Positions 1,795 through 30,025 of a stretch of 64,000 bases of DNA are shown here, in pieces. The notes below the pieces were generated by a model that was given only the letters and a program-made list of their open reading frames with translations, was not told the origin of the DNA and ran no database searches. The stretch comes from Chitinophagales bacterium (lineage in GTDB: Bacteria > Bacteroidota > Bacteroidia > Chitinophagales > Chitinophagaceae): contig JBBRHM010000001.1 in the NCBI GenBank assembly GCA_038222655.1, positions 3,350 to 67,349 on the forward strand. Direction: 5' to 3'. The first letter of the stretch is position 1. Each line of letters begins with the position of its first letter. The position numbers and the translations under genes were made by a program.

Positions 1795-1795
1795 A

Positions 1796-3836: not shown

Positions 3837-3871
3837 TCATTAAGTTTTATTAAGAACATATTTATAGACTA

Positions 3872-4912: not shown

Positions 4913-4935
4913 TTATTTTTTTTACTGATTTATAA

Positions 4936-7329: not shown

Positions 7330-8007
7330 TTAAATGTTGGCTGCCATGTATGTTTCAGGTGTTCCGATATCCAGGAATGTTTCTTTTGTTTCGTAGGTAT
7401 AAATTTTGCACATTAGCAGTGGTAATATCTCTGTACTAAAATCGGTCATCCCGGGTTTCAACTGTTTTAATAAATCTGCTGAAAGAATATATATTGCTCC
7501 ATTAGCCAGGTTACCTGGTGGAGACTGTTGCTTTTCATACATTTTAATTACCACTCCCTCTTCGTCTATTTCAAGAATTCCACATGAAGATGGATTATCT
7601 GTCTGGAATGTCATCATTGTCATTACACATTTTTGTGGGCGGTTTTGATGTGCCTCCAAAAAAGAGCCAAAGTCTGCCAAACAGTAATTGTCAGCGTGTA
7701 TTAGTAATGCGTCCCCGCCTTCAAAAAAATCTATATTAGCCATTAATGTTCCGGCAGTGCCTAATAGTTCTGGTTCATATGCGATCGTAACTACATCCTT
7801 ATAATTACTAGTATTAATAAACTCTTCCACAACTTTTGGCAGGTAGTGTGTATTCACTAAAAAAGGAGAAATACCTTCCTTAGACAATCGCTCAAGCCAG
7901 ATCTCCAATAAAGGCTTACCCCTTATTGGCACAAGACATTTGGGAATAGTATTAGTGAGTGGCCGCAGGCGGGTTCCAAAACCTGCGGCAAGAAGTAGCG
8001 CTTTCAT
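7330..8007 (-). CDS. Sugar-1-phosphate nucleotidyltransferase (HddC/GmhD-like)
   Basis: LLAAGFGTRLRPLT..PKCL, LLGTAG, NGAIY, DIGTPE; true start ATG 8007 overlaps the upstream stop (ATGA). Confidence 0.88.
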   Translation of the reverse strand: MKALLLAAGFGTRLRPLTNTIPKCLVPIRGKPLLEIWLERLSKEGISPFLVNTHYLPKVVEEFINTSNYKDVVTIAYEPELLGTAGTLMANIDFFEGGDALLIHADNYCLADFGSFLEAHQNRPQKCVMTMMTFQTDNPSSCGILEIDEEGVVIKMYEKQQSPPGNLANGAIYILSADLLKQLKPGMTDFSTEILPLLMCKIYTYETKETFLDIGTPETYMAANI

Positions 8008-9443
8008 TTTGTTAACTCTTCTAAAAGTTCTTTTGTTTTCAGTGGTGTATTGCCAACACGGCCTACCTGAATAGCTGCCGCGAGCGAGCCAATGCAGGCA
8101 GCTTCCCAAATGGTACCTCCAACTGCCATTACCATTGATGTTGCAATCAGTAAAGAGTCTCCTGCTCCTGAGACATCTTTAGGCGATGAATTCAATGCGG
8201 CAATCCGATCTGTGAACATATTTCCCTTCCGGTCATTAATACCAACGTAGATAAGCATTCCCTCTGAACCCAACTTCAATAAAATATTTTTTGCGTTTGA
8301 AGTCGCCAGCATTTTATCCGCCAATATTACCAATCCATCATCATGGTTACGTATACTCAGTCGTGCTTCTCGTTCAGTTGGTGTTATTAAATCCATGTTT
8401 TTAAACCTCGAAATGTCTCCTTCCTGCGAAGAAGACTGGCTATCGGCAGCAAGAAATATTTTTTTATCGATACAAAGTTCTATTATCTTATCAACCAGGT
8501 CCTGTGGCAGGCATCCATAATTAAAATCAGAAAAAACCAATAGGTCACACGAACCGATGCACTCTTTCACCTGCGCTAATATCTGTATTTGCAGTTCTTG
8601 TGAGATAGGATTCTGGTGCAAATGACTCACCCTTAAAAGTGTTTTGCCTTTGCTGCGAAATCTTTGCTTTAAAGTAGTTGGGCGGGTGGAATCAATTATC
8701 AGTTTATGATCAATTCCATAATCCGATAATTTCTCAGTTGCATAATTCCTTAATTCATCATCACCGGTAATAGATATAAATCTAACGTCGGCACCTAATC
8801 CTTTTGCATGTGCAGCCACAATTCCTGCACCACCGATAAACTTAATCGAATCAATTGGGGTAACCACTATTGTTGGATCCTCCTGTGACATACCCAATGC
8901 TTCACAGGTAATGTATTCATCAATTATCAGGTCGCCGATAATACACACTTTCAATTTTGAAATTTTTGTAACCCATTGGCTTAAAGATGCGACACTAAGT
9001 CGATTTCTCGCAATAAACTCGTTAGGAAGACTTATTGATCTCGTTTCAGCAAACGAAATTTCATTTCGTATTAAATCAATTGAAGAAAATAATGATTCGC
9101 CGGAACTGAAAATTAATTTACCGCCGTAGCTTTCCAAAATTGAACTTTCAATATTTTCTGAAAATTCATGTTCTTTCCCCTTTACAACAAGGTCAGGTTT
9201 AATACCCTCCAGTACAGAAATCAAATCTTCATCAAATATAAAAGACTCATCAATCCATGAAATACTACGGATACTTTCTAACCGCAGATCTTGTTGTATA
9301 TAAGCAGCTTTTCCTGCAATCTTATCGCTTTCTACACCAACGATCAATCGAGTTCCACATTCTTTGGCAAACCGCAATAAACGAAGATGTCCAACATGAA
9401 GTACATTAAAGTGACCTGAAACAAAAACGACTTTTTCACTCAT
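8004..9443 (-). CDS. Bifunctional HldE/RfaE-like protein: N-terminal nucleotidyltransferase plus C-terminal PfkB kinase
   Basis: N-term GHFNVLHVGH (HxGH), RLES, VKGKE; C-term IGDLIIDEY, GGAGIVA, LVFSDFNYG, ITPTEREA, DVSGAGD. Confidence 0.85.
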   Translation of the reverse strand: MSEKVVFVSGHFNVLHVGHLRLLRFAKECGTRLIVGVESDKIAGKAAYIQQDLRLESIRSISWIDESFIFDEDLISVLEGIKPDLVVKGKEHEFSENIESSILESYGGKLIFSSGESLFSSIDLIRNEISFAETRSISLPNEFIARNRLSVASLSQWVTKISKLKVCIIGDLIIDEYITCEALGMSQEDPTIVVTPIDSIKFIGGAGIVAAHAKGLGADVRFISITGDDELRNYATEKLSDYGIDHKLIIDSTRPTTLKQRFRSKGKTLLRVSHLHQNPISQELQIQILAQVKECIGSCDLLVFSDFNYGCLPQDLVDKIIELCIDKKIFLAADSQSSSQEGDISRFKNMDLITPTEREARLSIRNHDDGLVILADKMLATSNAKNILLKLGSEGMLIYVGINDRKGNMFTDRIAALNSSPKDVSGAGDSLLIATSMVMAVGGTIWEAACIGSLAAAIQVGRVGNTPLKTKELLEELTK

Positions 9444-9491
9444 ATTATGAGACCATTATTTCGGAAAACAGATACTATTATAAATTGCATA

Positions 9492-10661
9492 TTATGCTTT
9501 CTGGAATATCACATTATGCGTTCCCATACCCCAGGTAGAAATAAAAACCTCTTCAGTTTGACAATAAGCGGTCAAGTCGCCTGTTTTCTTGCTGCTGATC
9601 ATTTCAAAAATATCCTTTATCATCTTGAAAAGGTTTTGCACATACGCTAAATCATCTGTCATGGGTATATGTGCCTGTAGGAATTTATTTATGTCGGCAA
9701 TCAATCCAAGTGCTTCTTTACAGCCCTCTTCGGAATCAGCATCGATAAGACCGTCAGTGATTTCAACAATCCTTTTCAGTTTGGTACTCAGTTCTTCAGA
9801 ACTTACCGGTATAAAACATTTATTTCCTAAAAAATGACTGAGACGGCTTTGCTGAATAAATGAAACAGATGAATTTAATTCGCTTTCTGCAGTAAAAGGT
9901 TTTTTGATCCAGTCCATCGAATGTGCATTCCGGTAAGTTGGCCATGAAGAGAATAACCTGAATCCTTCAGAATGTGCATCACGTAAAAGATCTGCAGGAT
10001 CTATCAGGTATTTTAATCTTACGAATGGATTTTCAATAACATCCATAAACCACGATTCGATTTTTCGGGTATGGATGATACTGTTCCATTTATTAAGGAA
10101 AAGCGTTTGTGCCAGTTCAAGGCCTTCGCCTCCCTGTCCGTTTCTTTTCACAGAATTGTAAATCGCTTTTTGCAATAATTCAATAAACCCTCCATATAGG
10201 TCAATAAAACTTATTACAAACAAACCATCTTCTTCAAGACATTCTTTTGCTTTTTTGATCCAGGCAATATTTGGCTGTATCGTATAAATAAAGCCTTCCG
10301 CATCGATCACATCAAATTTCGATTCGTTTTTGAATTCCAGAAGTGATGCCGCCACGAGGCCATTGATGCTACTTTCCAAACCATATTGCGACAAATAATT
10401 ACGGATATAACTATGCGCTTCTATATTGGGTTCAACAAGGGTTAAAGTGGCACCCCATTTAGCGAACACCAAAGCATTTTCTCCTGTATCAGGGCCAAAC
10501 TCTAATATTTTTTTACCCTTGAAAAAAGTATAGGGCAGGTTAAGGCGATAAAAAAAGTTTTTACGCTGTTCTGAGTACCTGTTCAATTGCTCATCATTGC
10601 CAAAAGCGGCATATGTTGGGCGGATATCTTTTGTTTCATAATAATTAAACAAACTTTCCAT
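9492..10661 (-). CDS. Class I SAM-dependent methyltransferase
   Basis: KILEFGPDTG SAM motif, FDVI, long unassigned C-terminal half. Confidence 0.7.
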   Translation of the reverse strand: MESLFNYYETKDIRPTYAAFGNDEQLNRYSEQRKNFFYRLNLPYTFFKGKKILEFGPDTGENALVFAKWGATLTLVEPNIEAHSYIRNYLSQYGLESSINGLVAASLLEFKNESKFDVIDAEGFIYTIQPNIAWIKKAKECLEEDGLFVISFIDLYGGFIELLQKAIYNSVKRNGQGGEGLELAQTLFLNKWNSIIHTRKIESWFMDVIENPFVRLKYLIDPADLLRDAHSEGFRLFSSWPTYRNAHSMDWIKKPFTAESELNSSVSFIQQSRLSHFLGNKCFIPVSSEELSTKLKRIVEITDGLIDADSEEGCKEALGLIADINKFLQAHIPMTDDLAYVQNLFKMIKDIFEMISSKKTGDLTAYCQTEEVFISTWGMGTHNVIFQKA

Positions 10662-10717
10662 AATCGCTAAATATTATTTTACATATTTTAATTTAATACA
10701 TCGAGGGTTTCGCTCTG

Positions 10718-11962
10718 TTATTCTACAATCCTGAAATGAGGTACAGGTATGATATACTTTCCGGCAGTTTCCAGGTATTTTTTATTTTTCCCAATAAATG
10801 TATCCGCAAAACGCCATGCAAGAATCACTACATAATCAGGTTTCTTTTCATACATAGCATTGGATGGATATACCGGTAAATGATGGCCAGGGCTAAACCT
10901 GCCCTGTTTAGCAATATTATCGTCAACGAGATAATCGAAATATTCTCCCATTTCAAAATGATAAATCAGTGTAGTTCCGGTTACAGAAGCACCAAAACCT
11001 GCTACAGTTTTACCTTCCGCTTTCGCTTTTCGGAGAAAATCAAGCATCTGCTGTTTCAGACCGTCTATCTTCTGCGCATACTTTTCGTAAGTTTCTTTTT
11101 TATAGAGACCATAATTTTCTTCGAAACTAATCAGCTCTTCAACGCTTTTATCTTTTGCTCTTGGCCCGTCCTTATGCTGTACAAAATAACGCAGCGAACC
11201 TCCTTTGGTGGGAACCCTGTCTACTGAAAAAAGCTCCAGCCCGTGTTTCTCAAATAGTGTTTTTACAGGTTTAACAGAAAAAGAAGTGATATGCTCATGG
11301 TATATGAAATCAAATACCATATTCTCTACAAGATCGGCTAAATAATAACTTTCAAAAACGTATACACCTTTCTCATCCAGCAATTCTTTAATGCAGGCAA
11401 CCCATGTATTGATATCATCAATATTGGCAAATACATTATTGGAAGTGATCAGTTTTGGCTTGCTATGTTCTGCTATTATCTTTTTAACCAGGTCCGGACC
11501 GAAATAACCATTCATGGTTGGAACACCGTTTCCATTGGCTAATTCGGCAATATGTGGTGCCGGTTCAATTCCCAATGCATTCAGCCCGTTTTGCTGAAAG
11601 AAATGTAAAAGAGTTCCATCATTACTTCCAATATCTACTACAAGTGATTTATCTTCTAATTTAGATTTAGCTACTACATCGGCAGCGTATTGTTTAAAAT
11701 GACTATCCAATCCAAAAGAACTAGAAGTGTTATATATGTATTCGCCATACAAAACATCTGAATCGATTACATCGGGCAACTGTGCAAGGCCACAATCCTG
11801 GCACATAAAAAGATCAATCGGATAGGAAGGTTGAAAAACACCTACTTTTTCTTTCAGCACATATGCATCCCCGATAGGTGAAGGTTTCAGGCTAAAGAAT
11901 AATTCCATGTTTTCACTGCCGCAACCACGGCAGTCTTTTCTTCTGTAAATAACTTGATCCAT
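10718..11962 (-). CDS. NDP-sugar C-methyltransferase family protein
   Basis: CRGC...CQDC Zn motif, VDIGSNDG, GIEP, FDFIYHEH, GGSLR, GFGAS, VDDN, ILAWRF. Confidence 0.85.
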   Translation of the reverse strand: MDQVIYRRKDCRGCGSENMELFFSLKPSPIGDAYVLKEKVGVFQPSYPIDLFMCQDCGLAQLPDVIDSDVLYGEYIYNTSSSFGLDSHFKQYAADVVAKSKLEDKSLVVDIGSNDGTLLHFFQQNGLNALGIEPAPHIAELANGNGVPTMNGYFGPDLVKKIIAEHSKPKLITSNNVFANIDDINTWVACIKELLDEKGVYVFESYYLADLVENMVFDFIYHEHITSFSVKPVKTLFEKHGLELFSVDRVPTKGGSLRYFVQHKDGPRAKDKSVEELISFEENYGLYKKETYEKYAQKIDGLKQQMLDFLRKAKAEGKTVAGFGASVTGTTLIYHFEMGEYFDYLVDDNIAKQGRFSPGHHLPVYPSNAMYEKKPDYVVILAWRFADTFIGKNKKYLETAGKYIIPVPHFRIVE

Positions 11963-11963
11963 A

Positions 11964-12494
11964 TTATAAGTGATTCTGTTTGTTTATTTTTTCCTCAAGC
12001 GTTGTAATAAAATCTGCTGATCCTTGTAAATCTGCATCTTCCGGCGACCATGGTGCAAAGACGGTATCGCTCCTGTCGAAAGGACCATTGGTTGTTTCGT
12101 GAAACACCAATACCTCAGACCTGATTAGGAGGGTATGGTAAACGGGTTCGCCAATACGTAAGTAAAAGGATACACCGGAGGAAAAATCTCCCATCGGAAT
12201 TATCTTTTTTATTTCGCCATTGTCTTCAAAGAAAACGATGTCTACTTTGCCCTGGATGATATGTATAGATTCTGATTTACCCGGGTGTTTATGCGGCCTT
12301 ACATAACAATCTTTTTCATGAATGATGAGCATTTCATGTAGCCTGTCATCCACACCGCTATGGGTGCATAAACGAATCCGTCTTCTTGGATTTTGATTGG
12401 CCTCGAGTGTTAACTTCTCTATCATCCCTGCATTAGATTCTGTCAGGAGAGATGTTGAATAATATACCTCGTTATTTACTTTTTTTAGATCCAT
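11964..12494 (-). CDS. WbuC-family cupin
   Basis: RRRIRLCTH, YVRPHKH..KSE, YHTL, FHETTNGPF, FAPWSP. Confidence 0.8.
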   Translation of the reverse strand: MDLKKVNNEVYYSTSLLTESNAGMIEKLTLEANQNPRRRIRLCTHSGVDDRLHEMLIIHEKDCYVRPHKHPGKSESIHIIQGKVDIVFFEDNGEIKKIIPMGDFSSGVSFYLRIGEPVYHTLLIRSEVLVFHETTNGPFDRSDTVFAPWSPEDADLQGSADFITTLEEKINKQNHL

Positions 12495-12497
12495 ATA

Positions 12498-13715
12498 TTA
12501 TCCGGTAATAAAACTTTTCCAAAATGGTGGTAATAAATCGGAAGGTGGTATCAATGACCAGAACTGTCCGCCACCATCTACCCATTTTTGATGTTTGCCA
12601 ATTACTTTATGTTCATTTTCAACATTTACGGCCAGGAAACAGATATCAATATTGGAAGAATACAATTCGACACCGGATACAATTGGAATTTTACAACCAG
12701 GTGTAAACAGGTTTTGTTTTTCTTTTTGATCATCAAGGATAAGGTCGACATAACCACCAACCTCTAAAAAATTAAGTAGGCAGAATGTACTTGAACCTGC
12801 ACCATAGACGGCAATTTTTTTCCCTTTCTCTTTTTCGGTTTTCAGGTACTGCAGAAAATTATCTTTAAAACTGCTCCACCTGTCTGCATACTGCTGATTT
12901 AATGAAAGCAATGATTCAAGATACTTTGTATCGGGCTTTACATCTTTTGTTTTGCGGCCAATAACAAATAATGCTTCCCCGCTAAAAACAATAATATCTT
13001 CCTGAACAGCTTTAATCCCTATTTGAGCCAAATACCATTTCATTGTCTCCATAGTGAAATAATTGACATGCTCTTCCCAAAGCGCATAATTATAAGACTC
13101 AAGGCAACGTTTAAAATTTGGAACTTCTATCAAAATATATCCATTATCAGCCAATAATAGATCTATAGATTTGATCATATCCGGAAGATCACTGATATGC
13201 TCAAGTACGTGCCTGGCCATCAAAAGATCAAATGTTCCGTGTTCATCTTTGATCTTTTTTGCAGTTTCTATATTGAGATAATCATGAATTACATTGTATC
13301 CTTTCTCTTTGGCTATATTAAAGCCGTCGGTAGTGGGTTCTATTCCCATGAAATTGGTAAAACCATTTGCTGCAAAATGATCAAAGAATATCCCGTCATT
13401 GCAACCGATCTCAAAAATTTTTGAGTCTGTTGTAAACCCTTCCAGTGATTTTAAAATCTCAATTTCCTTTGGAATTTGCGGTTGCGACTTCCATGAACTT
13501 AAAGTAACATAGTTGTCGTACAATAAGTTCGGCGGACATGAATCTACCAGCTGTGTAAGACCACAGGATTTACATACATATAAGTTCATTGGGAATACCG
13601 GTTGAACTTCGTCCCTGTATTTGGTGTAATGCTTCATAATTGGATAGTTTCCAAACTCAATCAACGCTGATAGGTCGGTGCCGGAACAAAGATTACAGCT
13701 ATACAAATTCTTCAT
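12498..13715 (-). CDS. Second NDP-sugar C-methyltransferase family protein
   Basis: CNLC...CKSC, FEIGCNDG, GIEP, RHVLEHI, IEVPN, EEHVNYF, YGAG. Confidence 0.8.
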   Translation of the reverse strand: MKNLYSCNLCSGTDLSALIEFGNYPIMKHYTKYRDEVQPVFPMNLYVCKSCGLTQLVDSCPPNLLYDNYVTLSSWKSQPQIPKEIEILKSLEGFTTDSKIFEIGCNDGIFFDHFAANGFTNFMGIEPTTDGFNIAKEKGYNVIHDYLNIETAKKIKDEHGTFDLLMARHVLEHISDLPDMIKSIDLLLADNGYILIEVPNFKRCLESYNYALWEEHVNYFTMETMKWYLAQIGIKAVQEDIIVFSGEALFVIGRKTKDVKPDTKYLESLLSLNQQYADRWSSFKDNFLQYLKTEKEKGKKIAVYGAGSSTFCLLNFLEVGGYVDLILDDQKEKQNLFTPGCKIPIVSGVELYSSNIDICFLAVNVENEHKVIGKHQKWVDGGGQFWSLIPPSDLLPPFWKSFITG

Positions 13716-13786
13716 ATTTATTTTTTATTGGGAAAAGAGATTTAGGTAATTAAACCAGATTATTTACAAACGAATTAACTATTTGA

Positions 13787-14830
13787 TCAAAGTGCATGCC
13801 CCATATTAACCAGAATACGCCCACAATCACCTTGCCGCATGAGGTCGAGAGCCATATTAATATCATCGAGTGAAAATTCGTGTGTTATCAGTCCGTCTAA
13901 ATTCATCTTATTGGCATTCATTAATTTAATAAGCCTGGGAATCTCAACATCAGGAACGGCATCGCCGCCATGAGACCCGGTTAATTGCTTATTGAAATGG
14001 AGCGGCAGCGTATAGATAGACACATTGTCTCCTTTTTTAGGTACCCCTACCAAAATAGTTTTTCCATCAACATTAGTAAGATCGTATGCCTGTTCTATTA
14101 CCCGTGCGTTACCAGTCGTATCAATTACCACATCTGCACCTTTGGAGCCTACAATTGCCTTAATCTTCTCTGTAAGATCAGTTTCGTTTTTACTGTTGAA
14201 ACCGTGGGTCATTCCGAATTTTTTTCCGAGCTCCAGTTTTTGGGCATTGATATCAATACCTATAATAGGGTGTGCCGAAACCATGCCTGCAGATTGGGCG
14301 AGGTTAATGCCAACACCACCCATACCAAAGATTACGACAGACTGTCCTATCTTAACCTTTGCATCATTATTAATAACCCCAACCGCAGTAGTTACTGCAC
14401 AACCAAAAAGAGGTGCCAGTCTAAGGTCAAAATCTTTTGGGATAACGGTTAAACGGTTTTCCGAAATAACAGCATAATCGTTGAAGGTGGTTACCCATCC
14501 TGCATTAACTGTTTTGCTGCCCCAGTGATATTTTGCCGTGGGTGCCTGTATGCCACTGCTTGGCCTCCAGTGAAGTACAACATGATCATCCTCTTTAACA
14601 GTTGTTACGCCGGGTCCGGTTTTTAAAACTTTGCCTGATCCTTCATGCCCTAACAAATGTGGTAAAAACTTATCCGGCCCCTTACTCGCATTTATTTCAT
14701 TCAACTGGGCACCGCAAATACCACTGAAATAGATTTGTACCAGCACCTGTCCATACTCAAGATTATCGTTATAAGAAATATTATCAATAACCAGGGGCTT
14801 ACCACTTTCAACCAGTATTGCTGCTTTCAT
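13787..14830 (-). CDS. Zn-dependent alcohol dehydrogenase (MDR family)
   Basis: GICGAQ, GHEGSG, GCAVTT, FGMGGVG; lacks the structural Zn Cys cluster. Confidence 0.85.
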   Translation of the reverse strand: MKAAILVESGKPLVIDNISYNDNLEYGQVLVQIYFSGICGAQLNEINASKGPDKFLPHLLGHEGSGKVLKTGPGVTTVKEDDHVVLHWRPSSGIQAPTAKYHWGSKTVNAGWVTTFNDYAVISENRLTVIPKDFDLRLAPLFGCAVTTAVGVINNDAKVKIGQSVVIFGMGGVGINLAQSAGMVSAHPIIGIDINAQKLELGKKFGMTHGFNSKNETDLTEKIKAIVGSKGADVVIDTTGNARVIEQAYDLTNVDGKTILVGVPKKGDNVSIYTLPLHFNKQLTGSHGGDAVPDVEIPRLIKLMNANKMNLDGLITHEFSLDDINMALDLMRQGDCGRILVNMGHAL

Positions 14831-14839
14831 GTAGTTGTT

Positions 14840-15505
14840 TTATTCAAAATAAATAAACTCGAAATCTCCTGTGTAGCCAAAGTGTTCATATAACCATATC
14901 CACTCTTCTTTGTCGAAGAATGATTCGCAGGTAAGTGCCCAGCACTGTAAATTAAACTGCTCCAGTTCATTGCGGTAGCTCTCCAGCATTACATATCCTT
15001 GTTTTCCTACACGCTCGATTTCTTTTAATGCCGGCTGTAATTCAAACAGGCGCAGGTTATGAAGCGTTGTTAAACTGATCACCAGGTCAAATTCCTTATC
15101 TCCGAATGGGTATGGATCCTGAGCCCTTTGTACCATTATATAGGGTTTGATATCGGGATGAGAATTCTCTATTCCATGTTTGGAAATATCAAACCCAACG
15201 ACATGTATACCAGGAAGAATTTTTTTGATTTCATATAAAAGAAAACCTTTGCCGCAACCTACATCCAGGATTTTTGAATCATTGGTGAGATGATAATCAG
15301 CAATTAATGCTTCTGCAACCGGCTTCCATCGGCCTTCAATAAAACGGTATCCTCCATATCCATATCTTCTGTCCCCATCCCAATAATCGCCTTCGTATTC
15401 TTTAGCCTTTAACATGCACTTTACTTTCTCATCAACCATTCTTGCGAGGTAATCCCTTTTGGTAGCCTGGTGTAAAGGAGTTACAAAATTTTTGAGTTGT
15501 TTCAT
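14840..15505 (-). CDS. Class I SAM-dependent methyltransferase
   Basis: ILDVGCGKG, GFDIS, PFGDKEFDLVIS, ALKEIERV. Confidence 0.85.
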   Translation of the reverse strand: MKQLKNFVTPLHQATKRDYLARMVDEKVKCMLKAKEYEGDYWDGDRRYGYGGYRFIEGRWKPVAEALIADYHLTNDSKILDVGCGKGFLLYEIKKILPGIHVVGFDISKHGIENSHPDIKPYIMVQRAQDPYPFGDKEFDLVISLTTLHNLRLFELQPALKEIERVGKQGYVMLESYRNELEQFNLQCWALTCESFFDKEEWIWLYEHFGYTGDFEFIYFE

Positions 15506-15906
15506 TTACTTATTGAATTTGAATGTGATAAAATTTGCTTAACGCGCCATATATTTTCAATCCGTTCCATATCTTGCCTGTTTCTCATCGATAAGCCTTC
15601 TACGCAAAAATGCAGTTCCTTTTTTTGAATCAATACTTTTTCATAGATAACATTCCTTTCTACTTCATCTTCCGGTAACTGAAAAAGGCTATATGCTGCA
15701 ATGCCGTCTAACTGTGGCAATTCATCAAGGAGTAGTTTAAAGATGAGATGGCAGTGTTCCATCGCGTATTCGCTTGCACTTAATAAAAAATGTAAGCTGT
15801 TCTTATCGCAGTAATCCCTGATCACTATGTTCTGGATGTGTTGCGGCACGCGTTCATCCATAAAACTCCTGCTGAAAACATAACCCCTTACTTTTTTCTT
15901 CCTCAT
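15502..15906 (-). CDS. Sporadic carbohydrate cluster protein (TIGR04323/LIC12192-like)
   Basis: RGYVFSRSF..ERVPQHIQNIVIRDYC, LSASEY, YSLFQLP; adjacent to the 2OG oxygenase as recalled for this family. Confidence 0.7.
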   Translation of the reverse strand: MRKKKVRGYVFSRSFMDERVPQHIQNIVIRDYCDKNSLHFLLSASEYAMEHCHLIFKLLLDELPQLDGIAAYSLFQLPEDEVERNVIYEKVLIQKKELHFCVEGLSMRNRQDMERIENIWRVKQILSHSNSISK

Positions 15907-16694
15907 ACTTTAGGCAGTTTATAAGCCATCCCCGTTCGTGTTGCTGCGCGAAGTGTAATCGGTTCAAAAAATTCGCCAAGTTTTTTATCACCATACGGAG
16001 TGAATACACCTTTAAACCGGCAATTCATTGACCATCTTGTTTCAGATTCTGTATTAACCCTGTTCCCATGTGGAAGCGACTGATCAAAGATCAACACTTC
16101 ACCATATTTTACTTCCAGCCATGTAACATCATTAACGATGGCCTGGTAAAGATCTTCACTACTTTTACCTGCGCGGTTTGTAAAATCGCGGTTCAATTCT
16201 GCGGCGTGGTCTGGAGGTAGCAGATACATCGCTTTGGTTCCATAGCAGTTTACCAGAGGTAACCAAACCACTACTTCGTAAGGAGAATCACCAGACCATG
16301 TATCTGCATGTACCGGCAACAGCGAGCTGTTATCGTCGGGAAACTGTATACTTAAATTTACACGCAGTTGCATAGCCAGTTCATTGCCCACAATTATGTC
16401 AAGATAATTTTTTGCTACGCGGTAATACATTTCACGAAAGCCTTCCACATCATTAAATCCCCTGATGATCTTCAGCCTGAAAGCATTCAATTCTGCTACC
16501 GGTACTTTTTCATGAATGTGATTTAACAAATCTTCCGGCGTTGCATCAATGGCTATATCCAGTGTTTCTCCAACCAACCTTACAAACTGGTTACGCATCC
16601 AGTCCAATGCTTCCGTGTCTTCGATCTGGCGTATCACGTATCCCTGTTCAAGGTATTCTTCCGATAATTTATTTTCTGATTTACTCAAAAACAT
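15903..16694 (-). CDS. Sporadic carbohydrate cluster 2OG-Fe(II) oxygenase (TIGR04324-like)
   Basis: HxD (VHADTWSGDS), distal His (PHGN), RWSMNCRFK. Confidence 0.75.
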   Translation of the reverse strand: MFLSKSENKLSEEYLEQGYVIRQIEDTEALDWMRNQFVRLVGETLDIAIDATPEDLLNHIHEKVPVAELNAFRLKIIRGFNDVEGFREMYYRVAKNYLDIIVGNELAMQLRVNLSIQFPDDNSSLLPVHADTWSGDSPYEVVVWLPLVNCYGTKAMYLLPPDHAAELNRDFTNRAGKSSEDLYQAIVNDVTWLEVKYGEVLIFDQSLPHGNRVNTESETRWSMNCRFKGVFTPYGDKKLGEFFEPITLRAATRTGMAYKLPKV

Positions 16695-16696
16695 AT

Positions 16697-17626
16697 TTAC
16701 TTCTTTTGTATTTTTTTACGCATCGTTTCCATGAGCGTTTCTACTGTGATACCCCAATGTTTCCAGAGACTTTCCTGTGACCCATATTGTTTTGCAAACT
16801 GATCAGGAATTCCAATGCGCGCTATTTTTGAAGATTGCTGTGGCATATGATCATTTGTAAATTCCAATACTGCGGAACCCAGCCCGCCTATGCGGGTATG
16901 CTCCTCAACAGTTACTACAGCATCTACACCAGGTAATAAGTTGGAGAGGGCGGATTCGTCAAGTGGTTTGATCGTGTGCATATGTAAAACGCCGCATACC
17001 AATCCTTCGTCTTTCAATTTATCAGCCGCTTCGAGCGCAAGTTGTGTCATCACTCCGGTTGAAATAAAAAGTCCTTCGCCAACTTCACGCATCAATATCG
17101 CTTTACCTATCTGGAAGCCGTGTTTTTCTTCACTTACCACTTTATCGCCGCCTTTTCCAAGACGGATATAAATAGGGTGCGGCCAGTCAAGCGTTGTTGC
17201 CATAAAGCGTTTCATTTCATCTGCATCACAAGGTGCTACAACAGCCATATTAGGAAGTGCGCGCATGATAGCGATGTCTTCAACAGCCAGATGTGTTGGC
17301 CCCAGCGGCGCGTAAACTACGCCACCGCCATTGGCTATCAACCGCACGGGTAAATCCTGCAGGCAAAGATCAAGTGCAACTTGCTCATAACAGCGCCGTG
17401 TAAGAAAAGTAGCAATGGTATTTACATAAGGAATAAATCCTTCCATGGCCAAACCGGCAGCCATACCTACAATGTGTTGTTCACTCACCCCTTCCATAAA
17501 GAAACGCTCAGGCATTTCTTTTTTCATGGCAAGCAATACATCGGGGCCTAGATCTGATCCAATAAAAATAACCTTGTCATTTACCTTAGCAAGTTCGTAT
17601 ACGGAGTCAAGGGCTTTTTTTCTCAT
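16697..17626 (-). CDS. Transketolase, C-terminal (pyrimidine-binding) subunit
   Basis: RFFMEGVSEQ, YEQV, GPTH, YIRLGK, VTVEEH..IGGLG. Confidence 0.9.
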   Translation of the reverse strand: MRKKALDSVYELAKVNDKVIFIGSDLGPDVLLAMKKEMPERFFMEGVSEQHIVGMAAGLAMEGFIPYVNTIATFLTRRCYEQVALDLCLQDLPVRLIANGGGVVYAPLGPTHLAVEDIAIMRALPNMAVVAPCDADEMKRFMATTLDWPHPIYIRLGKGGDKVVSEEKHGFQIGKAILMREVGEGLFISTGVMTQLALEAADKLKDEGLVCGVLHMHTIKPLDESALSNLLPGVDAVVTVEEHTRIGGLGSAVLEFTNDHMPQQSSKIARIGIPDQFAKQYGSQESLWKHWGITVETLMETMRKKIQKK

Positions 17627-17633
17627 ATTTAAA

Positions 17634-18431
17634 TTATTCTAAGCATTTATACATATCCGCTATTTCTTCGGGTTTCATGTTTGATTTATGATGCCATTCC
17701 GCTTTTCCTTCTGCATACGGAAAGCCTTTGGATTTGATGGTATGACAAATAACCGTGGTAGGCTTTTCTTTATTAACCGGCAACTGTTTTACAACCGCTT
17801 CCAATGCGTTTACATCATGGCCATCTACTTCTATCACTTCAAAACCAAAGCTTCGCCATTTATCTGCAAGTGGTTCCAGATCGAGTACTTCTTTGGTAGC
17901 TCCGTAAGATTGGAGTTTATTGTAATCTATAAAAACAGTGAGGTTAGAAAGTTTGTGTTTTGATGCAGACATAGCAGCCTCCCAAACAGACCCTTCGTTG
18001 ATCTCTCCATCACCGCAAATAACCACAACACGAAAATCTTTTTTTTGCAGCCTTGCTGCGATGGCCATTCCTACACCCATCGGAAGACCATGCCCCAAAG
18101 CACCTGTAGAAGCTTCTACACCGGGTATTTTACCGCGTTCAGGATGTCCGCCGATACGTGCTGTTGATTTGCAAAAAGTTTTCATTTCTTCCCTTTCAAT
18201 AAATCCTTTATCCGCAAGAATAGCATACAGTGCAAGACATCCGTGACCTTTACTCAGGATAAGCCGGTCGCGGTCGGCCCACGTTGCATTGTCGGGCTTA
18301 AAATGAAGATAAGAATCATAGAGTACGCGCAGCATTTCTACCAGTGACATGGATGAGCCGAGATGTCCTCTTCCGCCTCCTTCAAGACCTTCGACGATTA
18401 ATTTTCTCAAATATTTAGAACGTTGATCCAT
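17634..18431 (-). CDS. Transketolase, N-terminal (ThDP-binding) subunit
   Basis: GHLGSSMS, DRLILSKGH, STGALGHG, GDGEINEGSVWEA...DYN, VDGHD, WHH. Confidence 0.9.
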   Translation of the reverse strand: MDQRSKYLRKLIVEGLEGGGRGHLGSSMSLVEMLRVLYDSYLHFKPDNATWADRDRLILSKGHGCLALYAILADKGFIEREEMKTFCKSTARIGGHPERGKIPGVEASTGALGHGLPMGVGMAIAARLQKKDFRVVVICGDGEINEGSVWEAAMSASKHKLSNLTVFIDYNKLQSYGATKEVLDLEPLADKWRSFGFEVIEVDGHDVNALEAVVKQLPVNKEKPTTVICHTIKSKGFPYAEGKAEWHHKSNMKPEEIADMYKCLE

Positions 18432-18436
18432 GTGGT

Positions 18437-20059
18437 TTAGATTGATTTTTTTATACTTTTTAAAAGATCTTTAGATTTTTTCAGTTGCAGACTTAATATA
18501 CTTTGTGAGTCTGTTTCTTTTGCATGGTCTGCATGTATTCTTTTAGCAAGGCGCTCAGGAAGAAATTCGTTAAGTAATATCAGACACCATCTCAATCCGA
18601 ATAGTGGCAGGTAGGCTTCCAGTCTCTTTTCAATTAAAAGATCATTGGTAAATATGCCTCTCACCTTATCAATCCATTGCCCTCTTACTTCTTCAGAAAG
18701 ATTCATTGCGGGATGCCAATAAAAATCAGCAACCAGCTTAACAGGATCATCCCACCCAAAATATTCAAAATCAATAAAAGTGATTTGCCCTCTTTCATTT
18801 CTTATCGCATTGTGTGCGCCAAAATCAGAGGGGCTGGGTATCCGCAACGATGAATCAAGTGTATTTTGAAATGTGTTACCGGTTATTATTTTTGCAGATT
18901 TTACAGCCTGAACGAACACAGGCATGAAATCATTTTCTAAGAAATCTGCCAGCGGAGCAGCGTTTACTTCATTTAAGCGGGACAATCTTTTTTCGATTTG
19001 CTTTGTAATTTCCAGGCCACTTAAGCAGGCTTCTGAAGCTTCTGAAAATTGACGAAACTGATCTGTTGCCCGACTCATTAACGCAAGCCGTTTGATAAAT
19101 TCTACACAAGTTTCGATGAATACATGGTCAGGCTTATCAATCACATGTCCATCAATCCATGAGTATATGGCCCAGTTCAGATTCTCATCTTTAGCCAAAG
19201 CATTTGTTACAGGGAAACCTGCTTTCGCAAGAATGGTACAGGCCGAAAATTCTGTTTCGAGTCTGGTACGACGGTCAGATTGTAAGTCGGGATAAATTTT
19301 CAGTGCACACTTATCTCCGTTTACCATGCTAAGCATAAATATCCTGCTGTTGCCACGCCCTTTTTTTAACGCTGCTTTTTCTATCTGTAAAAAAGGAAAA
19401 ACTATTTGTGCGGATTTACAGATATCTTCTGTTGTCCATTCACCAATCAATTCTCTGGTAATGGACCGCCATGAAGAGATAACTTTTGCGCTGGTTTTTT
19501 CGCCGGCTTTTTTCTGCGGATCAAAAAGATATTGATTTGTCGTTACAGGAAATGATGATTCATCAAATACTTCCTGAAGGTCATCAATAAAATGCGTACA
19601 GCCAAGTGAAATGATGCGATCTATTTTCGATTCACGCGTAGGTTCAAAAAAAACTTTATCCTGGGGAACAGAAGGTGCGTTATCTCCCGCAAGTTTATTA
19701 GCAAGTAACCACTTCATTGCTTCAACACGCAACGGGATTTTTTCTTCATCGAAATGACCGTAAGGGGATTTATGACTTACAACTGATACCTGATGCCCTT
19801 TTTGGTTTGCAAGAAAAAGAAATTCTGTAAACCCGGGGAAGATACTTGCTTTATGCATGTATTTACCATAGATCTGACCTTGTAATCTTTGCCAATTAAT
19901 ATCACCATCAGGCTGTGACATGATCATGTCTTTAACCTGCGCTTTGGAAAGTCCCTCAACTTTATCCTCAATCAGGTAAAGCTCTTTAGCTATAATAACA
20001 AAAACATTATCATAACAGGCAATGGTATTATCAAAATCAACACCTATACAAAACTTCAT
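18437..20059 (-). CDS. HAD-like hydrolase fused to an APH/choline-kinase-like phosphotransferase
   Basis: N-term GVDFDNT and HFIDDL (HAD motifs I and IV); C-term GRGNSR, ALKIY, SPSDFGAHN, IDFEYFGWDDP. Confidence 0.7.
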   Translation of the reverse strand: MKFCIGVDFDNTIACYDNVFVIIAKELYLIEDKVEGLSKAQVKDMIMSQPDGDINWQRLQGQIYGKYMHKASIFPGFTEFLFLANQKGHQVSVVSHKSPYGHFDEEKIPLRVEAMKWLLANKLAGDNAPSVPQDKVFFEPTRESKIDRIISLGCTHFIDDLQEVFDESSFPVTTNQYLFDPQKKAGEKTSAKVISSWRSITRELIGEWTTEDICKSAQIVFPFLQIEKAALKKGRGNSRIFMLSMVNGDKCALKIYPDLQSDRRTRLETEFSACTILAKAGFPVTNALAKDENLNWAIYSWIDGHVIDKPDHVFIETCVEFIKRLALMSRATDQFRQFSEASEACLSGLEITKQIEKRLSRLNEVNAAPLADFLENDFMPVFVQAVKSAKIITGNTFQNTLDSSLRIPSPSDFGAHNAIRNERGQITFIDFEYFGWDDPVKLVADFYWHPAMNLSEEVRGQWIDKVRGIFTNDLLIEKRLEAYLPLFGLRWCLILLNEFLPERLAKRIHADHAKETDSQSILSLQLKKSKDLLKSIKKSI

Positions 20060-21048
20060 TTCAGATCTATGCTCTGCATTCTTTTAATATTGAAATACTG
20101 TTCGCCGGACAGAGAATCGGGAAGTAAGCCTTCTTCAAATGCGCGTTTCAGGTCTTCCGCCGCTTCGCGGATCGTGTGTTGTGGCACGAATCCCAGTTTT
20201 TCGGCTATTTTTTTTGAAGAGATATGATATGACCTGTTATCATTGGTTGGTGTTGCTATTAATTTAACATCATCACCTACTACTTTCTGAACTGTTTCAG
20301 CAAGTTCCAGCACAGTTTGATTTTCAAAGCCAGCATTAAATATTTCACCGGCTATTTTTTCCTTTGGTGCACGCAGTAAAGTAATGTATGCATCAACCAT
20401 ATCGGCAATATGTATGTTAGGACGGAGTTGTTTGCCGCCAAATACACTGATTTCTCTTTTATGAAAAGCCAGGTTGGTAAGAATATTCACCACAACATCT
20501 AAGCGTTGCCGTGTGGAATATCCGCATACTGTTGCCGGACGGATCGTAACTGTTGTAAAATCGTGTGTCTGGAATTTAGCAAGTATTTTTTCGCAATCTG
20601 CTTTGAACTTTGAGTAATCAGTTAACGGTTCAAGAGACATTTCTTCATGCACATCCTGCTCTTCTTTAACACCGTATACAGATGAAGATGAGGCATAAAT
20701 AAAACGTTCAACGCCTGCATCTTTACTGATCCGTACAAGTGGTTCGAATGCATCCAGGTTGATCGATTTTCCGAGATTGGGATTCAATTCAAAACTTGGA
20801 TCATTGGAAATACAGGCAAGGTGTATCACTGCATTGTGGCCCGGAATTGTTTTGCGCAATAAATCTGCATCGCGAATATCACCTTTTACAAGCGTAAGAT
20901 CAATATGGGGTTTCAAAACGCTTTCTCCATACATCATTAGGTCAAGCACGGTTACTGAAAATCCTTCACTAAGTAATTTTGGTACCAGCATGGCGCCAAC
21001 GTAACCTGCACCCCCCGTGATATAAACTTTTCTATTTGTGCTGCTCAT
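20056..21048 (-). CDS. NAD-dependent epimerase/dehydratase
   Basis: ITGGAGYVG, HLACISND, ASSSSVYG, YSKFK, RPATVCG. Confidence 0.88.
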   Translation of the reverse strand: MSSTNRKVYITGGAGYVGAMLVPKLLSEGFSVTVLDLMMYGESVLKPHIDLTLVKGDIRDADLLRKTIPGHNAVIHLACISNDPSFELNPNLGKSINLDAFEPLVRISKDAGVERFIYASSSSVYGVKEEQDVHEEMSLEPLTDYSKFKADCEKILAKFQTHDFTTVTIRPATVCGYSTRQRLDVVVNILTNLAFHKREISVFGGKQLRPNIHIADMVDAYITLLRAPKEKIAGEIFNAGFENQTVLELAETVQKVVGDDVKLIATPTNDNRSYHISSKKIAEKLGFVPQHTIREAAEDLKRAFEEGLLPDSLSGEQYFNIKRMQSIDLK

Positions 21049-21084
21049 CGCTATGTTTGTTTGGTTAAATGATATTTATTTCGG

Positions 21085-22077
21085 CTAAGATGATGCTTGT
21101 GGACCCAGGTATTTGAACCAGTCCTGCGTTGCCGAGGCAATACTGTCGGGTGTCCATACAGGAGCGTTGTGCCAGTAGTCAATACTGTCAACCACTTTTG
21201 ATACGCCTTCTTCAATCGGTACTCTTGGTTTCCAGCCAAGCTCCGTATTAATCTTACTTATATCGGCAAAAGTACAATCCGGTTCGCCGGGGCGTTTAGG
21301 AATATGTGTTTTTTCGCCACCCAAAAGTTCTACCAACCTGTTTACTGAAACTGTTTGCCCACTGCCGATATTGTATATTTTTCCAACCTCATTACTTTGG
21401 GCTGCGGCAATTAGGGCCTGGGCTACATCTGTAACGTAGGTAAAATCACGTGTCTGTTCTCCATCCCCAACTATTGTCAAAGGCTTATTGGCTAATTTTT
21501 GGGCCAGAAAAACGCCAAACACTGCACCATAGGTTCCTGATGTGCGTGAGCGGGTACCATATACATTAAAGAACCTGCAAGATAAGGCAGCTAATTTATA
21601 TACCTGCGCCCAATGCATAACCAGTTCCTCGCCCATGCGTTTAGTAAGTGCATATGGATATTGTGGACGGATCTCTGCCGTTTCGGGTGTTGGATAATTA
21701 TCCGGAATACCGTAACATGATGATGAGGCTGCGTATATAAATTTTTTAACTCCTGCAGCATTACTTGCCTGCAATACATTAAAAGTACCATCAACATTTG
21801 CCCGGAAATAAGCTTCGGGTTTTTGAATACTTGGAACGATATCTGCTAATGCAGCCAGATGAAATACCCAGTCAACATCCTGAAAATTTTTGACCCATTC
21901 TCCGGATACAGAGAGATCACATTCAACAAGGTTAACCTTGCCTTTTACATGATCAAGGTTTTCGCGACGACCCGTACTGAAATTATCCAGCACAGTAACG
22001 TCATGTCCCAATTCAATAAGTGCATCCACCAAATGACTACCAATAAATCCAGCGCCGCCTGTTACAATAGACTTCAT
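21085..22077 (-). CDS. NAD-dependent epimerase/dehydratase
   Basis: VTGGAGFIGSHL, HLAA, ASSSCYG, PYALTK, RFFNVYG, TRDFTYV. Confidence 0.9.
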   Translation of the reverse strand: MKSIVTGGAGFIGSHLVDALIELGHDVTVLDNFSTGRRENLDHVKGKVNLVECDLSVSGEWVKNFQDVDWVFHLAALADIVPSIQKPEAYFRANVDGTFNVLQASNAAGVKKFIYAASSSCYGIPDNYPTPETAEIRPQYPYALTKRMGEELVMHWAQVYKLAALSCRFFNVYGTRSRTSGTYGAVFGVFLAQKLANKPLTIVGDGEQTRDFTYVTDVAQALIAAAQSNEVGKIYNIGSGQTVSVNRLVELLGGEKTHIPKRPGEPDCTFADISKINTELGWKPRVPIEEGVSKVVDSIDYWHNAPVWTPDSIASATQDWFKYLGPQASS

Positions 22078-22087
22078 AGGTCTTAAA

Positions 22088-22657
22088 TTATTTTTTTTCG
22101 ATTTTGTGTTTGCTTAACCATTGCATGCACATATGGCCTACCATCATTTGCAAGTCTTCTGAAACCTGCATATCGTTGATCTCAAAATGGATCGGGTGTT
22201 GCGCAATGTCTTTACATTTTCCACCTGAAAAACCAAGGATCGCAAAGGATATTAGGCCTTTACTATTCGCCATTTCTAATGCCTTTACAATATTGGGAGA
22301 ATTACCACTGCCTGATAATACAACGAGTACATCTCCTGCATTGGCTTTTACACGCAACTGTTCGGCATATACATTTTCATAACCGATATCATTGGCAAGA
22401 CAGGTTAAAATAGATGTATTGGCACTTAAAGATTCTACCCGTAATCCAATACCATTTTTGATACCGGCACCATAGAGAAAATCGTTTGCAAGATGCACGG
22501 CATTACCTGCGCTCCCGCCATTACCGCAAAAATAAATGGTCTTGCTATTTTCCCATGCCTGTTTAAGCGCTTCTCCTAATACCGGTATCTGGTTTATAGC
22601 AGGAAGTGTGAATGCGTAATTTATTTTCTCCAAATACGTTTGTACAATGTCCAACAT
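22088..22657 (-). CDS. gmhA: SIS-domain phosphosugar isomerase (GmhA, sedoheptulose-7-P isomerase family)
   Basis: CGNGGSA, CLANDIGY, SGSGNSPN, GFSGG, EDLQM. Confidence 0.82.
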   Translation of the reverse strand: MLDIVQTYLEKINYAFTLPAINQIPVLGEALKQAWENSKTIYFCGNGGSAGNAVHLANDFLYGAGIKNGIGLRVESLSANTSILTCLANDIGYENVYAEQLRVKANAGDVLVVLSGSGNSPNIVKALEMANSKGLISFAILGFSGGKCKDIAQHPIHFEINDMQVSEDLQMMVGHMCMQWLSKHKIEKK

Positions 22658-28638: not shown

Positions 28639-28667
28639 TAGTAAGGGTTGAAATGTAAGATGCAAGA

Positions 28668-28683
28668 ACGGCTTCGCCACCGT
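28668..28683 (-). promoter_or_regulatory. ops-like pause/antitermination element (ACGGTGGCGAAGCCGT)
   Basis: GGCGAAGCC core in the leader of a polysaccharide operon, about 30 nt before the first start codon; resembles GCGnAGC ops cores of RfaH/UpxY loci. Confidence 0.5.
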
Positions 28684-30002: not shown

Positions 30003-30025
30003 TTGTTCTCTTGTCTTACTATCAC

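Follow-up and report, generated by a model that had tools for sequence, protein, structure and literature searches.

A widespread carbohydrate cassette with a variant split transketolase in a surface-glycan export locus of a Chitinophagales bacterium

The window analysed here, a stretch of 64,000 nucleotides from a Chitinophagales bacterium (assembly GCA_038222655.1, contig JBBRHM010000001.1), carries a run of sugar-biosynthesis genes at 7330-22657 that includes a two-gene transketolase. Judged by its profile matches, this run is a member of the 'sporadic carbohydrate cluster' of NCBIfam (TIGR04323/TIGR04324): its Fe(II)/2-oxoglutarate oxygenase reaches 328.8 bits with TIGR04324 (E 2e-98, cut-off 150), and the adjacent LIC12192-family protein reaches 151.9 bits with TIGR04323 (cut-off 55). 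DNA nearly identical to the window is present in sediment, aquatic, glacier and soil metagenomes.

Gene content of the cassette

All open reading frames (ORFs) of at least 80 amino acids (aa) that tile 98-30002 of the window lie on the minus strand, and exactly 16 minus-strand ORFs of this size fall within 7330-22657, spaced by -4 to +71 nt. Several starts and stops of cassette ORFs overlap, which indicates translational coupling. A sequence-only reading of this DNA had described 16 near-contiguous, co-oriented genes here; the ORF map bears this out, and every domain label which that reading had assigned agrees with Pfam and NCBIfam scans of the window proteins, to which the NCBIfam equivalog cut-offs were applied. 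Its boundary was drawn too narrowly, as a PglK-like exporter and a TIGR04372 glycosyltransferase are recurrent members of the cassette too, and the same-strand gene run extends past the cassette down to position 98. The genes, from high to low coordinates, are:

22657-24414, minus strand: ATP-binding cassette (ABC) exporter with fused transmembrane and nucleotide-binding domains, PglK/MsbA-like (Pfam ABC_membrane and ABC_tran)
22088-22657, minus strand: GmhA-like phospho-ketose isomerase, SIS (SIS_2; TIGR00441 gmhA 105.6 bits)
21085-22077, minus strand: SDR1, extended short-chain dehydrogenase/reductase (SDR) of the GalE/WbpP/UXS type, epimerase or ketoreductase (Pfam Epimerase)
20056-21048, minus strand: SDR2, extended SDR (best PDB match 6VO6/6VO8)
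18437-20059, minus strand: HAD-kinase, fusion of an N-terminal HAD phosphatase and a C-terminal APH-fold kinase (Pfam APH, residues 250-459; weak HAD-IB match)
17634-18431, minus strand: TktN, N-terminal subunit of transketolase, binding thiamine diphosphate (ThDP) (PDB 6YAK, E 3e-72)
16697-17626, minus strand: TktC, C-terminal (Pyr + C) subunit of transketolase (PDB 6YAJ, E 7e-54)
15903-16694, minus strand: Fe(II)/2-oxoglutarate oxygenase (TIGR04324)
15502-15906, minus strand: LIC12192-family protein, oxygenase partner (TIGR04323)
14840-15505, minus strand: MT221, core class I S-adenosylmethionine (SAM) methyltransferase (Pfam Methyltransf_31/11/25)
13787-14830, minus strand: Zn-ADH, Zn-dependent medium-chain dehydrogenase (Pfam ADH_N and ADH_zinc_N)
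12498-13715, minus strand: CMT405, divergent C-methyltransferase-type enzyme (Methyltransf_13, 23 and 14)
11964-12494, minus strand: WbuC-family cupin metalloprotein (TIGR04366, 142 bits vs cut-off 42)
10718-11962, minus strand: CMT414, predicted 3-C-methyltransferase of nucleoside diphosphate (NDP)-4-ketosugars, TylC3/TcaB9/MtmC type (Pfam Methyltransf_14, 171 bits; PDB 4RV9)
9492-10661, minus strand: MT389, additional class I methyltransferase (Methyltransf_23)
8004-9443, minus strand: HldE-like bifunctional protein with reverse domain order (rfaE_dom_I 194 bits, rfaE_dom_II 71 bits, both below cut-off)
7330-8007, minus strand: NTP_transferase, sugar-1-phosphate nucleotidyltransferase of the RmlA/ManC/HddC/MurU superfamily (Pfam NTP_transferase; no equivalog cut-off reached)
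5978-7282, minus strand: putative glycosyltransferase, TIGR04372 family (228.6 bits vs cut-off 45)

The longest ORF of the NTP_transferase gene (7330-8109) opens at a TTG at 8109 and overlaps the upstream gene by 106 nt; its true start is the ATG at 8007, where the conserved N-terminus MKALLLAAGFGTRL begins. Promoter and terminator scans gave nothing above the shuffled expectation, and the sigma-70 rules fit Bacteroidota poorly.

Spread and variable composition of the cassette

Far from being confined to this genome, the cluster is a catalogued, widespread cassette, a horizontally mobile, phylum-hopping operon of which the window holds one copy. Homologues of its oxygenase number 3,206 in a 90%-clustered collection of 5.8 billion proteins, the best of them being 70-86% identical and coming from widely different taxa, and when one genome of each species was scanned, at least 241 genomes from many phyla held a relative. 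Among the carriers are several Leptospira spp., Phormidium, Spirulina and other cyanobacteria, Ilumatobacteraceae and Acidimicrobiia, Beta- and Gammaproteobacteria, Pelagibacteraceae (SAR11), SAR116, Azospirillum, Thalassobaculum, Bdellovibrio, and metagenome-assembled genomes (MAGs) of Chloroflexota (Thermoflexus) and Chitinophaga. No homologue was found on PLSDB plasmids, and a single contig in IMG/VR encodes a homologue of the oxygenase (48% identical; L083, IMGVR_UViG_3300027357_000030, 3192-3965); within the scope of these collections, plasmids and phages are thus not the carriers of the cassette.

Gene order was compared by searching all window proteins with tblastn against the loci of the best 80 of the relatives in the 241 species genomes (locus numbers with L below), and gene presence was counted in the 39 loci with full 10-kb flanks. 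A syntenic core with 45-80% protein identity across phyla comprises SIS, SDR1, SDR2, HAD-kinase, TktN, TktC, oxygenase, LIC12192, MT221, HldE-like and NTP_transferase genes, often with the exporter upstream and the TIGR04372 transferase downstream. Such an arrangement, shared across dozens of unrelated genomes, is far beyond chance. The oxygenase and LIC12192 genes are present in 39/39 loci, followed by MT221 (38/39), transketolase and SDR2 (33/39 each), the HldE-like gene (32/39), HAD-kinase (28/39), SIS (23/39), the TIGR04372 transferase (21/39), NTP_transferase (20/39), the WbuC cupin (18/39) and CMT414 (16/39), and Zn-ADH was found in none of the 39 related loci. All six variable core genes occur together in 16 of the 39, and HAD-kinase is absent from loci that have no transketolase.

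The 16 genes are thus composed of the conserved core, an optional module of C-methyltransferase, cupin and C-methyltransferase, and two genes that are specific or nearly specific to the window, Zn-ADH and MT389. The CMT405-cupin-CMT414 module recurs in L013, L014, L020, L035, L060 and L066, and weak homologues of MT389 occur in L001 and L014. In the Leptospira loci (L019-L022, L024, L050) the syntenic genes are SIS, SDR1, NTP_transferase, HldE-like, SDR2, HAD-kinase, transketolase, oxygenase, LIC12192 and MT221. Leptospira and cyanobacterial cassettes contain two tandem DegT/EryC1-type aminotransferase genes between SDR2 and HAD-kinase (L014 4342-6554; L019 4026-6238; L026, L027, L071), so that these cassettes would probably yield an amino- or deoxy-modified version of the sugar specified in the window. 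A radical-SAM enzyme is present in the Thermoflexus MAG cassette. The minimal cassette of Thalassobaculum litoreum (L079 500-12054) consists of the HldE-like, SIS, oxygenase, LIC12192 and MT221 genes and lacks transketolase, HAD-kinase and SDRs; two FkbM-type methyltransferases and a sulfotransferase stand beside its oxygenase and LIC12192 genes. As minimal cassettes keep the HldE-like and SIS genes with the trio of oxygenase, LIC12192 and MT221, the trio is tied to heptose-activation genes.

Predicted enzyme functions and genomic surroundings

Aligned to E. coli GmhA, the SIS protein is identical at S55, H61, D94, S119, S121, S124 and H180, and every cassette copy carries E65D and Q172E in E. 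coli GmhA numbering. The HldE-like protein has its cytidylyltransferase domain at the N-terminus and its PfkB kinase at the C-terminus, the reverse of HldE; the PDB relatives of these domains are HldA (4E84) and HldC (5X9Q), and the HxGH motif of the nucleotidyltransferase domain reads HVGH. In the HAD-kinase, the invariant motifs are DFDNT, VVSHK and FIDDL in the HAD part (motifs I-IV intact) and SPSDFGxHN and DFEYFGWDDP in the kinase part, where the APH domain retains the catalytic Asp/Asn and DFE motifs; a PDB sequence search with this protein gave no match. The NTP_transferase scores 80 bits against HddC. A dedicated sugar-nucleotide pathway with NDP-heptose logic, as proposed earlier, is upheld by the kept GmhA residues, the HldA/HldC-like domains and the intact HAD phosphatase, and the starting sugar is, by a strong inference from these sequences, a heptose.

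Keto-sugar chemistry is predicted for several further genes. SDR1 has its best PDB matches in the GalE-type structures 6DNT and 4ZRM (E about 1e-51), carries SSSCYG...YxxxK and is 60-80% identical in most full cassettes. For SDR2, the best solved relative by far is 6VO6/6VO8 (E 5e-40, end-to-end alignment), which we take to be Cj1427 of Campylobacter jejuni, a GDP-heptose C4 dehydrogenase; SDR2 is thus a probable NDP-heptose C4 dehydrogenase. The chemistry of Cj1427 has been described (PMC10680097). The TDE motif of 4,6-dehydratases is in neither SDR1 nor SDR2, which suggests that the sugar probably keeps its side-chain oxygens. CMT414 aligns to MtmC (PDB 4RV9) with E 7e-79 over residues 10-413 and to KijD1 and TcaB9 with E about 1e-57, and has the expected architecture of Methyltransf_13 (Zn), SAM domain and Methyltransf_14 with an N-terminal zinc-binding CxxC...CxxC; by these similarities it is clearly assignable as an NDP-4-ketosugar 3-C-methyltransferase. 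Enzymes of the MtmC/KijD1/TcaB9 type methylate C3 beside a 4-keto group and require a 4-keto sugar, as do DegT-type aminotransferases. Within the C-methyltransferase family CMT405 is more distant, and the WbuC cupin could be an epimerase or isomerase acting on a keto-sugar. We also considered GDP-4-keto-6-deoxymannose from the upstream Gmd (30026-31135) as substrate of the C-methyltransferases, which is less parsimonious because their module with the cupin travels inside the cassette in other phyla.

The transketolase differs from housekeeping enzymes at its acceptor site. Compared with E. coli TktA, TktN and TktC keep His26, His66, His100, His261, Arg358, His473 and the activating Glu; in TktC, however, His461 is replaced by Gly, Asp469 by Leu, and Ser385 is lost, with Arg358 and an Arg near position 520 retained. 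In canonical transketolases Asp469 binds the 2-hydroxyl of the acceptor, and His461 and Ser385 help to hold the substrate phosphate. Position 385 carries Gly or Asp in the 16 sequences aligned. The motif GGxVYAPLGPTH occurs in 59 of 64 cassette homologues and the Asp is also absent from four further ones (YANLGATH once, YAPQGMTH three times), L061 giving no readout; Asp469 and His461 are lost in all 63 homologues inspected, and the pair is therefore not a housekeeping transketolase. The Asp469 equivalent is kept in DXS and in the split-gene enzyme of Carboxydothermus hydrogenoformans, to whose N subunit TktN is about 50% identical. That enzyme (6YAK/6YAJ) is active, and its His100 equivalent, which binds the C1 hydroxyl of the donor, is Phe in the pyruvate-using DXS (PMC7661550). 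As His100 is kept in the cassette, the transferred C2 unit would be hydroxylated and not acetyl. From its residues and synteny, the cassette transketolase is best described as a dedicated subfamily with a different predicted acceptor. The SIS gene is missing within about 10 kb of several transketolase cassettes (L023, L026, L066, L071, L073, L076), which suggests an ordinary substrate that the housekeeping GmhA could supply. Cleavage of an NDP-6-keto-heptose as transketolase donor was rejected on mechanistic grounds, since it offers no free 3-OH equivalent.

The oxygenase has the invariant residues H129-x-D131...H209 together with Arg220 and Arg226. Foldseek places its AlphaFold2 model (pLDDT 65, low confidence) among PhyH-like oxygenases (E about 5e-7, TM-score about 0.46), its relatives including the sugar-acting EvdO2, HygX, SnoK/SnoN and KanJ; a PDB sequence search gave no match and all Pfam matches were sub-threshold. 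The start of the LIC12192 gene overlaps the oxygenase stop by 4 nt and the two are adjacent in every locus inspected, LIC12192 being an obligate partner of the oxygenase, with MT221 mostly just downstream. The family has 848 clusters at 50% identity and is almost always stand-alone; among its relatives (P0241, P0250, P0367) are a tandem duplication and, in P0250 and P0367, fusions to a class I methyltransferase, which point to a functional tie to MT221. The top Foldseek matches of the LIC12192 model (pLDDT 88) are catalytic domains of serine recombinases (E 1e-4, 9-18% identity). The protein itself, with 134 aa and no DNA-binding domain, does not qualify as a serine recombinase, and a profile search with its alignment returned the family itself alone and no recombinases among the 150 matches listed, so the resemblance is at fold level only. 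Judging from the model, a resolvase-like fold seems to have been put to use in sugar metabolism in LIC12192.

For the exit of the product, the best NCBIfam match of the ABC exporter is PglK (359 bits, below the equivalog cut-off), and in many loci the SIS gene is immediately preceded by a homologue with 32-50% identity; by sequence, it is the probable flippase for a lipid-linked product. The TIGR04372 protein has one N-terminal membrane anchor (transmembrane segment at residues 29-62), and sequence searches returned no Pfam or PDB relative. This copy of the cassette is housed in a Bacteroidota capsule or O-antigen export locus of the Wza/Wzz type, where a Wza-like protein with multiple SLBB domains, a Wzz-like protein and the PglK/MsbA-like exporter are encoded directly upstream of the cluster. 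Upstream of the export genes, at 29070-32501 on the minus strand, lie genes for GDP-L-fucose synthase, GDP-mannose 4,6-dehydratase and a UDP-glucose/GDP-mannose dehydrogenase-family protein; fucose and a uronic acid are probably part of the same glycan. A 193-aa ORF at 28099-28680 (minus strand) heads the export and biosynthesis run and has weak helix-turn-helix matches but no family assignment; it may be the regulator of the locus. Further away are genes of type IX secretion and gliding at 33332-39883 (PorV, a PorU-like C25 peptidase and a GldJ-like protein with an FGE-sulfatase domain), which mark the DNA as coming from Bacteroidota. A P-type heavy-metal ATPase followed by a 1041-aa multicopper oxidase with three heavy-metal-binding (HMBD) repeats at 53185-58444 (plus strand) looks like a copper-resistance pair.

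Proposed pathway, competing explanations and related systems

We propose that the cassette serves a surface polysaccharide by making a tailored, nucleotide-activated sugar of the heptose type, which it also transfers and flips; to this account we give somewhat less than an even chance. Its early steps are those that the sequences support directly. The GmhA-type isomerase would act on a ketose phosphate, most simply sedoheptulose-7-phosphate, and the HldE-like kinase/nucleotidyltransferase with the HAD phosphatase would convert the product to NDP-heptose. SDR2, which is probably Cj1427-like, would oxidise C4 to give a 4-keto sugar, and in this window CMT414, an enzyme of the MtmC/TcaB9 type, would methylate its C3. 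The later steps are more conjectural. The second C-methyltransferase and the WbuC cupin may also act on the 4-keto sugar, and the split transketolase would move a C2 unit of the glycolaldehyde type onto a non-canonical carbonyl, its acceptor being most probably an NDP-keto-sugar, by analogy with YerE or AviB1/AviB2 but leaving a hydroxylated branch. SDR1, helped here by Zn-ADH, would reduce the remaining carbonyls, after which the PhyH-like oxygenase, LIC12192 and the methyltransferase may oxidise a C-H position and O-methylate the sugar. Finally, the TIGR04372 enzyme would transfer the sugar and the PglK-like ABC protein would flip the lipid-linked product. The APH kinase and the NTP_transferase are left unexplained by this scheme; they may supply an alpha-anomeric NDP form or re-activate a released intermediate.

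We favour a tailoring role of the transketolase over the building of a ketose phosphate because cassettes with transketolase and without SIS exist and half of the phosphate-binding residues are gone; on the choice between building a C7/C8 ketose phosphate and adding a C2 branch, the sequences lean, by indirect evidence, against building. The most specific form of the product, which we hold to be unlikely in all its parts, would be a branched higher-carbon sugar: an NDP-heptose given a hydroxylated C2 branch by a re-tooled transketolase acting on the nucleotide-linked keto-sugar, carrying one or two C-methyl groups and O-methyl groups here, and finally oxidised by the oxygenase with its resolvase-fold partner, whose function would be of a new type.

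Several points weigh against the proposed pathway. The heptose-pathway enzymes do not reach their equivalog cut-offs (SIS 105.6 bits vs 209.45 for gmhA; the HldE-like protein 166 bits vs 521 for HldE; 135 bits vs 275 for HldD), so that heptose as the starting sugar is strongly indicated rather than demonstrated. The identity of 6VO6/6VO8 as Cj1427 is presumed, the model of the oxygenase has low confidence, and the evidence from sequence does not fix the NDP carrier. A single sugar would not call for two kinases and two nucleotidyltransferases. Transketolases do not usually take ketones as acceptors, and we know of no transketolase that acts on a nucleotide sugar, nor, to our knowledge, is there any product chemistry for an organism that carries the cassette.

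Among the competing explanations, it is possible though doubtful that, as in the main version of the sequence-only reading, the transketolase acts upstream and builds an unusual C7/C8 ketose phosphate, for instance the phosphate of a 4-deoxy or differently modified heptulose or octulose, which the cassette then converts to an NDP-heptose or NDP-octose, a logic with a precedent in the octose of lincomycin. Arg358 and the Arg near 520 could still bind a phosphate, the donor-side histidines are intact, and the change from Asp to Leu at the 2-OH site of the acceptor would suit a 2-deoxy or 2-substituted aldose phosphate. The SIS proteins of full cassettes moreover form a tight subfamily (56-71% identical), compared with 30-42% for the SIS of minimal clusters without transketolase. 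The loss of the phosphate-holding His461 and Ser385 speaks against such a builder, as do the six SIS-less loci named above and the minimal clusters that manage without transketolase. The surplus APH kinase and NTP_transferase keep another explanation alive, which we find quite unlikely: two activated molecules, an NDP-beta-heptose derivative made by SIS, the HldE-like protein and the trio, and a second NDP-activated ketose, polyol or small-alcohol phosphate substituent made by transketolase, HAD-APH kinase and NTP_transferase in a LicA/LicC-like or CDP-2-glycerol-like branch and attached as a side group or phosphodiester. The doubled kinases and nucleotidyltransferases fit this explanation, APH-fold kinases and NTP_transferases are known as activation couples in AmgK/MurU and LicA/LicC, and the lost phosphate- and 2-OH-binding residues would suit a small non-phosphorylated aldehyde. 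Transketolase, HAD-kinase and NTP_transferase also tend to co-occur, as the 16 loci with all variable core genes and the transketolase-less loci without HAD-kinase show. But the cassette has a single conserved dedicated transferase (TIGR04372), SDR1, SDR2 and the enzymes that tailor the 4-keto sugar accompany the transketolase module and not the minimal one, and NTP_transferase is missing in the fetched flanks of many alphaproteobacterial loci that contain transketolase.

We consider it very unlikely that the genes encode an ordinary NDP-heptose pathway with O- and C-methylation in which the transketolase merely raises the supply of sedoheptulose-7-phosphate. Its catalytic apparatus is complete and TktN resembles the active C. 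hydrogenoformans enzyme, but Asp469 and His461, universal in canonical transketolases, are replaced in every cassette homologue inspected, and the gene is inherited with the cassette rather than with the genome. Least probable of all is that the cassette tailors the neighbouring nonulosonic acid pathway of the legionaminic type instead of a heptose. Genes for LegB, NeuB, a NeuC-like enzyme and a CMP-synthetase do follow directly at 98-5946, a LegB homologue (57-79% identity) abuts the cassette in L014, L026, L045 and L055, and other nonulosonic acid genes lie near it in several marine loci; most cassettes, however, have no such genes within 10 kb, the NTP_transferase of Leptospira is nested inside the cassette away from any LegB, and GmhA- and HldE-like genes have no role in the synthesis of these acids. 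Besides LegB (TIGR04180, 544 bits) and a NeuC-type hydrolysing 2-epimerase, both above their cut-offs, the set at 98-5946 (minus strand) encodes a NeuB-type synthase, a short SDR, an oxidoreductase of the GFO/IDH/MocA type and a CMP-sugar synthetase. As we see neither an aminotransferase nor an N-acetyltransferase gene in this set, which reaches to the left edge of the window, either the window holds only part of the pathway or the route is not the classical one to legionaminic acid. The NTP_transferase gene adjoins a LegB homologue in the window and also in L014 and L026, which would suit a role in the neighbouring pathway of the legionaminic type; we rejected this as a general explanation since the gene is nested between SDR1 and the HldE-like gene in Leptospira.

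In the interpretation that we prefer, a tailored NDP-heptose with a dedicated transketolase, two parts of the sequence-only reading stand, namely the NDP-heptose logic and a transketolase that is not a housekeeping pair, its place in the cassette being conserved across phyla and its acceptor site changed in every copy inspected; the 16-gene boundary does not. Our literature search ('sporadic carbohydrate cluster', LIC12192, transketolase with O-antigen, Leptospira, heptose or octose) turned up no publication on either the cassette or what it makes, and hence no characterised product that would tie the cluster to a known sugar. We agree that the product is probably undescribed and that, of the biosynthetic systems in this half of the window, this one is the most interesting. 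The family itself was already catalogued; by sequence, the cluster resembles an ADP- or GDP-heptose pathway with Cj1427-type 4-keto tailoring, its enzymes fall short of the equivalog cut-offs of those families, and its transketolase departs from the canonical acceptor site.

At least three enzyme types in the cassette have no assigned reaction, and solving it would give a function to TIGR04323, TIGR04324, TIGR04372, the HAD-APH fusion and the variant transketolase. A new sugar for the bacterial glycome is a probable gain, and transketolase chemistry could possibly be extended to nucleotide sugars, which is of interest for biocatalysis. The carriers include pathogenic Leptospira, abundant freshwater actinobacteria, SAR11, SAR116, cyanobacteria and plant-associated Azospirillum. 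For Leptospira there is a bearing on O-antigen and serovar chemistry: pathogenic strains carry the cassette in their lipopolysaccharide (LPS) locus and so, if the branched-sugar reading is true, the sugar would help to determine the serovar, a role not recognised before. The window copy illustrates how a mobile core decorated with optional modules, such as C-methylation and an extra reductase, may contribute to the diversity of surface glycans.

The closest known relative is the 'sporadic carbohydrate cluster' itself, first noted in the LPS (rfb) locus of Leptospira interrogans and defined by bioinformatics alone. Loci L019-L022 and L050 of Leptospira have the same gene order, with core genes 36-75% identical to the window copy, which adds Zn-ADH and a further methyltransferase and has neither of the two DegT aminotransferases. 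The pathway to ADP-L-glycero-beta-D-manno-heptose (GmhA, HldE, GmhB, HldD) has four matching activities in the window, in SIS, the PfkB kinase with nucleotidyltransferase, the HAD phosphatase and an extended SDR; in contrast to that pathway, the phosphatase here is HAD-IB-like and fused to an APH kinase instead of being GmhB, and many tailoring enzymes are added. The heptose pathways of C. jejuni share with our proposal the formation of a 4-keto-heptose that is then epimerised, reduced or deoxygenated; they mention no C-methyltransferase, transketolase or 2-oxoglutarate oxygenase (PMC10680097), and their GHMP kinase is absent from the window cassette. TylC3, TcaB9, KijD1 and MtmC act in antibiotic pathways on dTDP-4-keto-2,6- or 6-deoxyhexoses, whereas the window core has no 4,6-dehydratase and the likely substrate is a 4-keto-heptose. 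The split transketolase of C. hydrogenoformans has the same two-chain architecture as TktN/TktC with conserved ThDP/metal ligands and donor histidines, but the two differ in the acceptor motif, which is tHaGltvGeDGasH (canonical H...D...H) in that enzyme and nGGGvvyaPLGPTH in the cassette. The ThDP enzymes YerE of yersiniose synthesis and the two-subunit AviB1/AviB2 and Pau11/Pau12 add C2 branches at C4 of NDP-4-keto sugars (PMC4753412). The cassette resembles them in that the gene of a two-subunit ThDP enzyme stands beside that of an enzyme predicted to form a 4-keto sugar, which makes a plausible route to a higher-carbon sugar branched at C-4, and differs in that its enzyme is a true transketolase-family protein of the 6YAK/6YAJ type.

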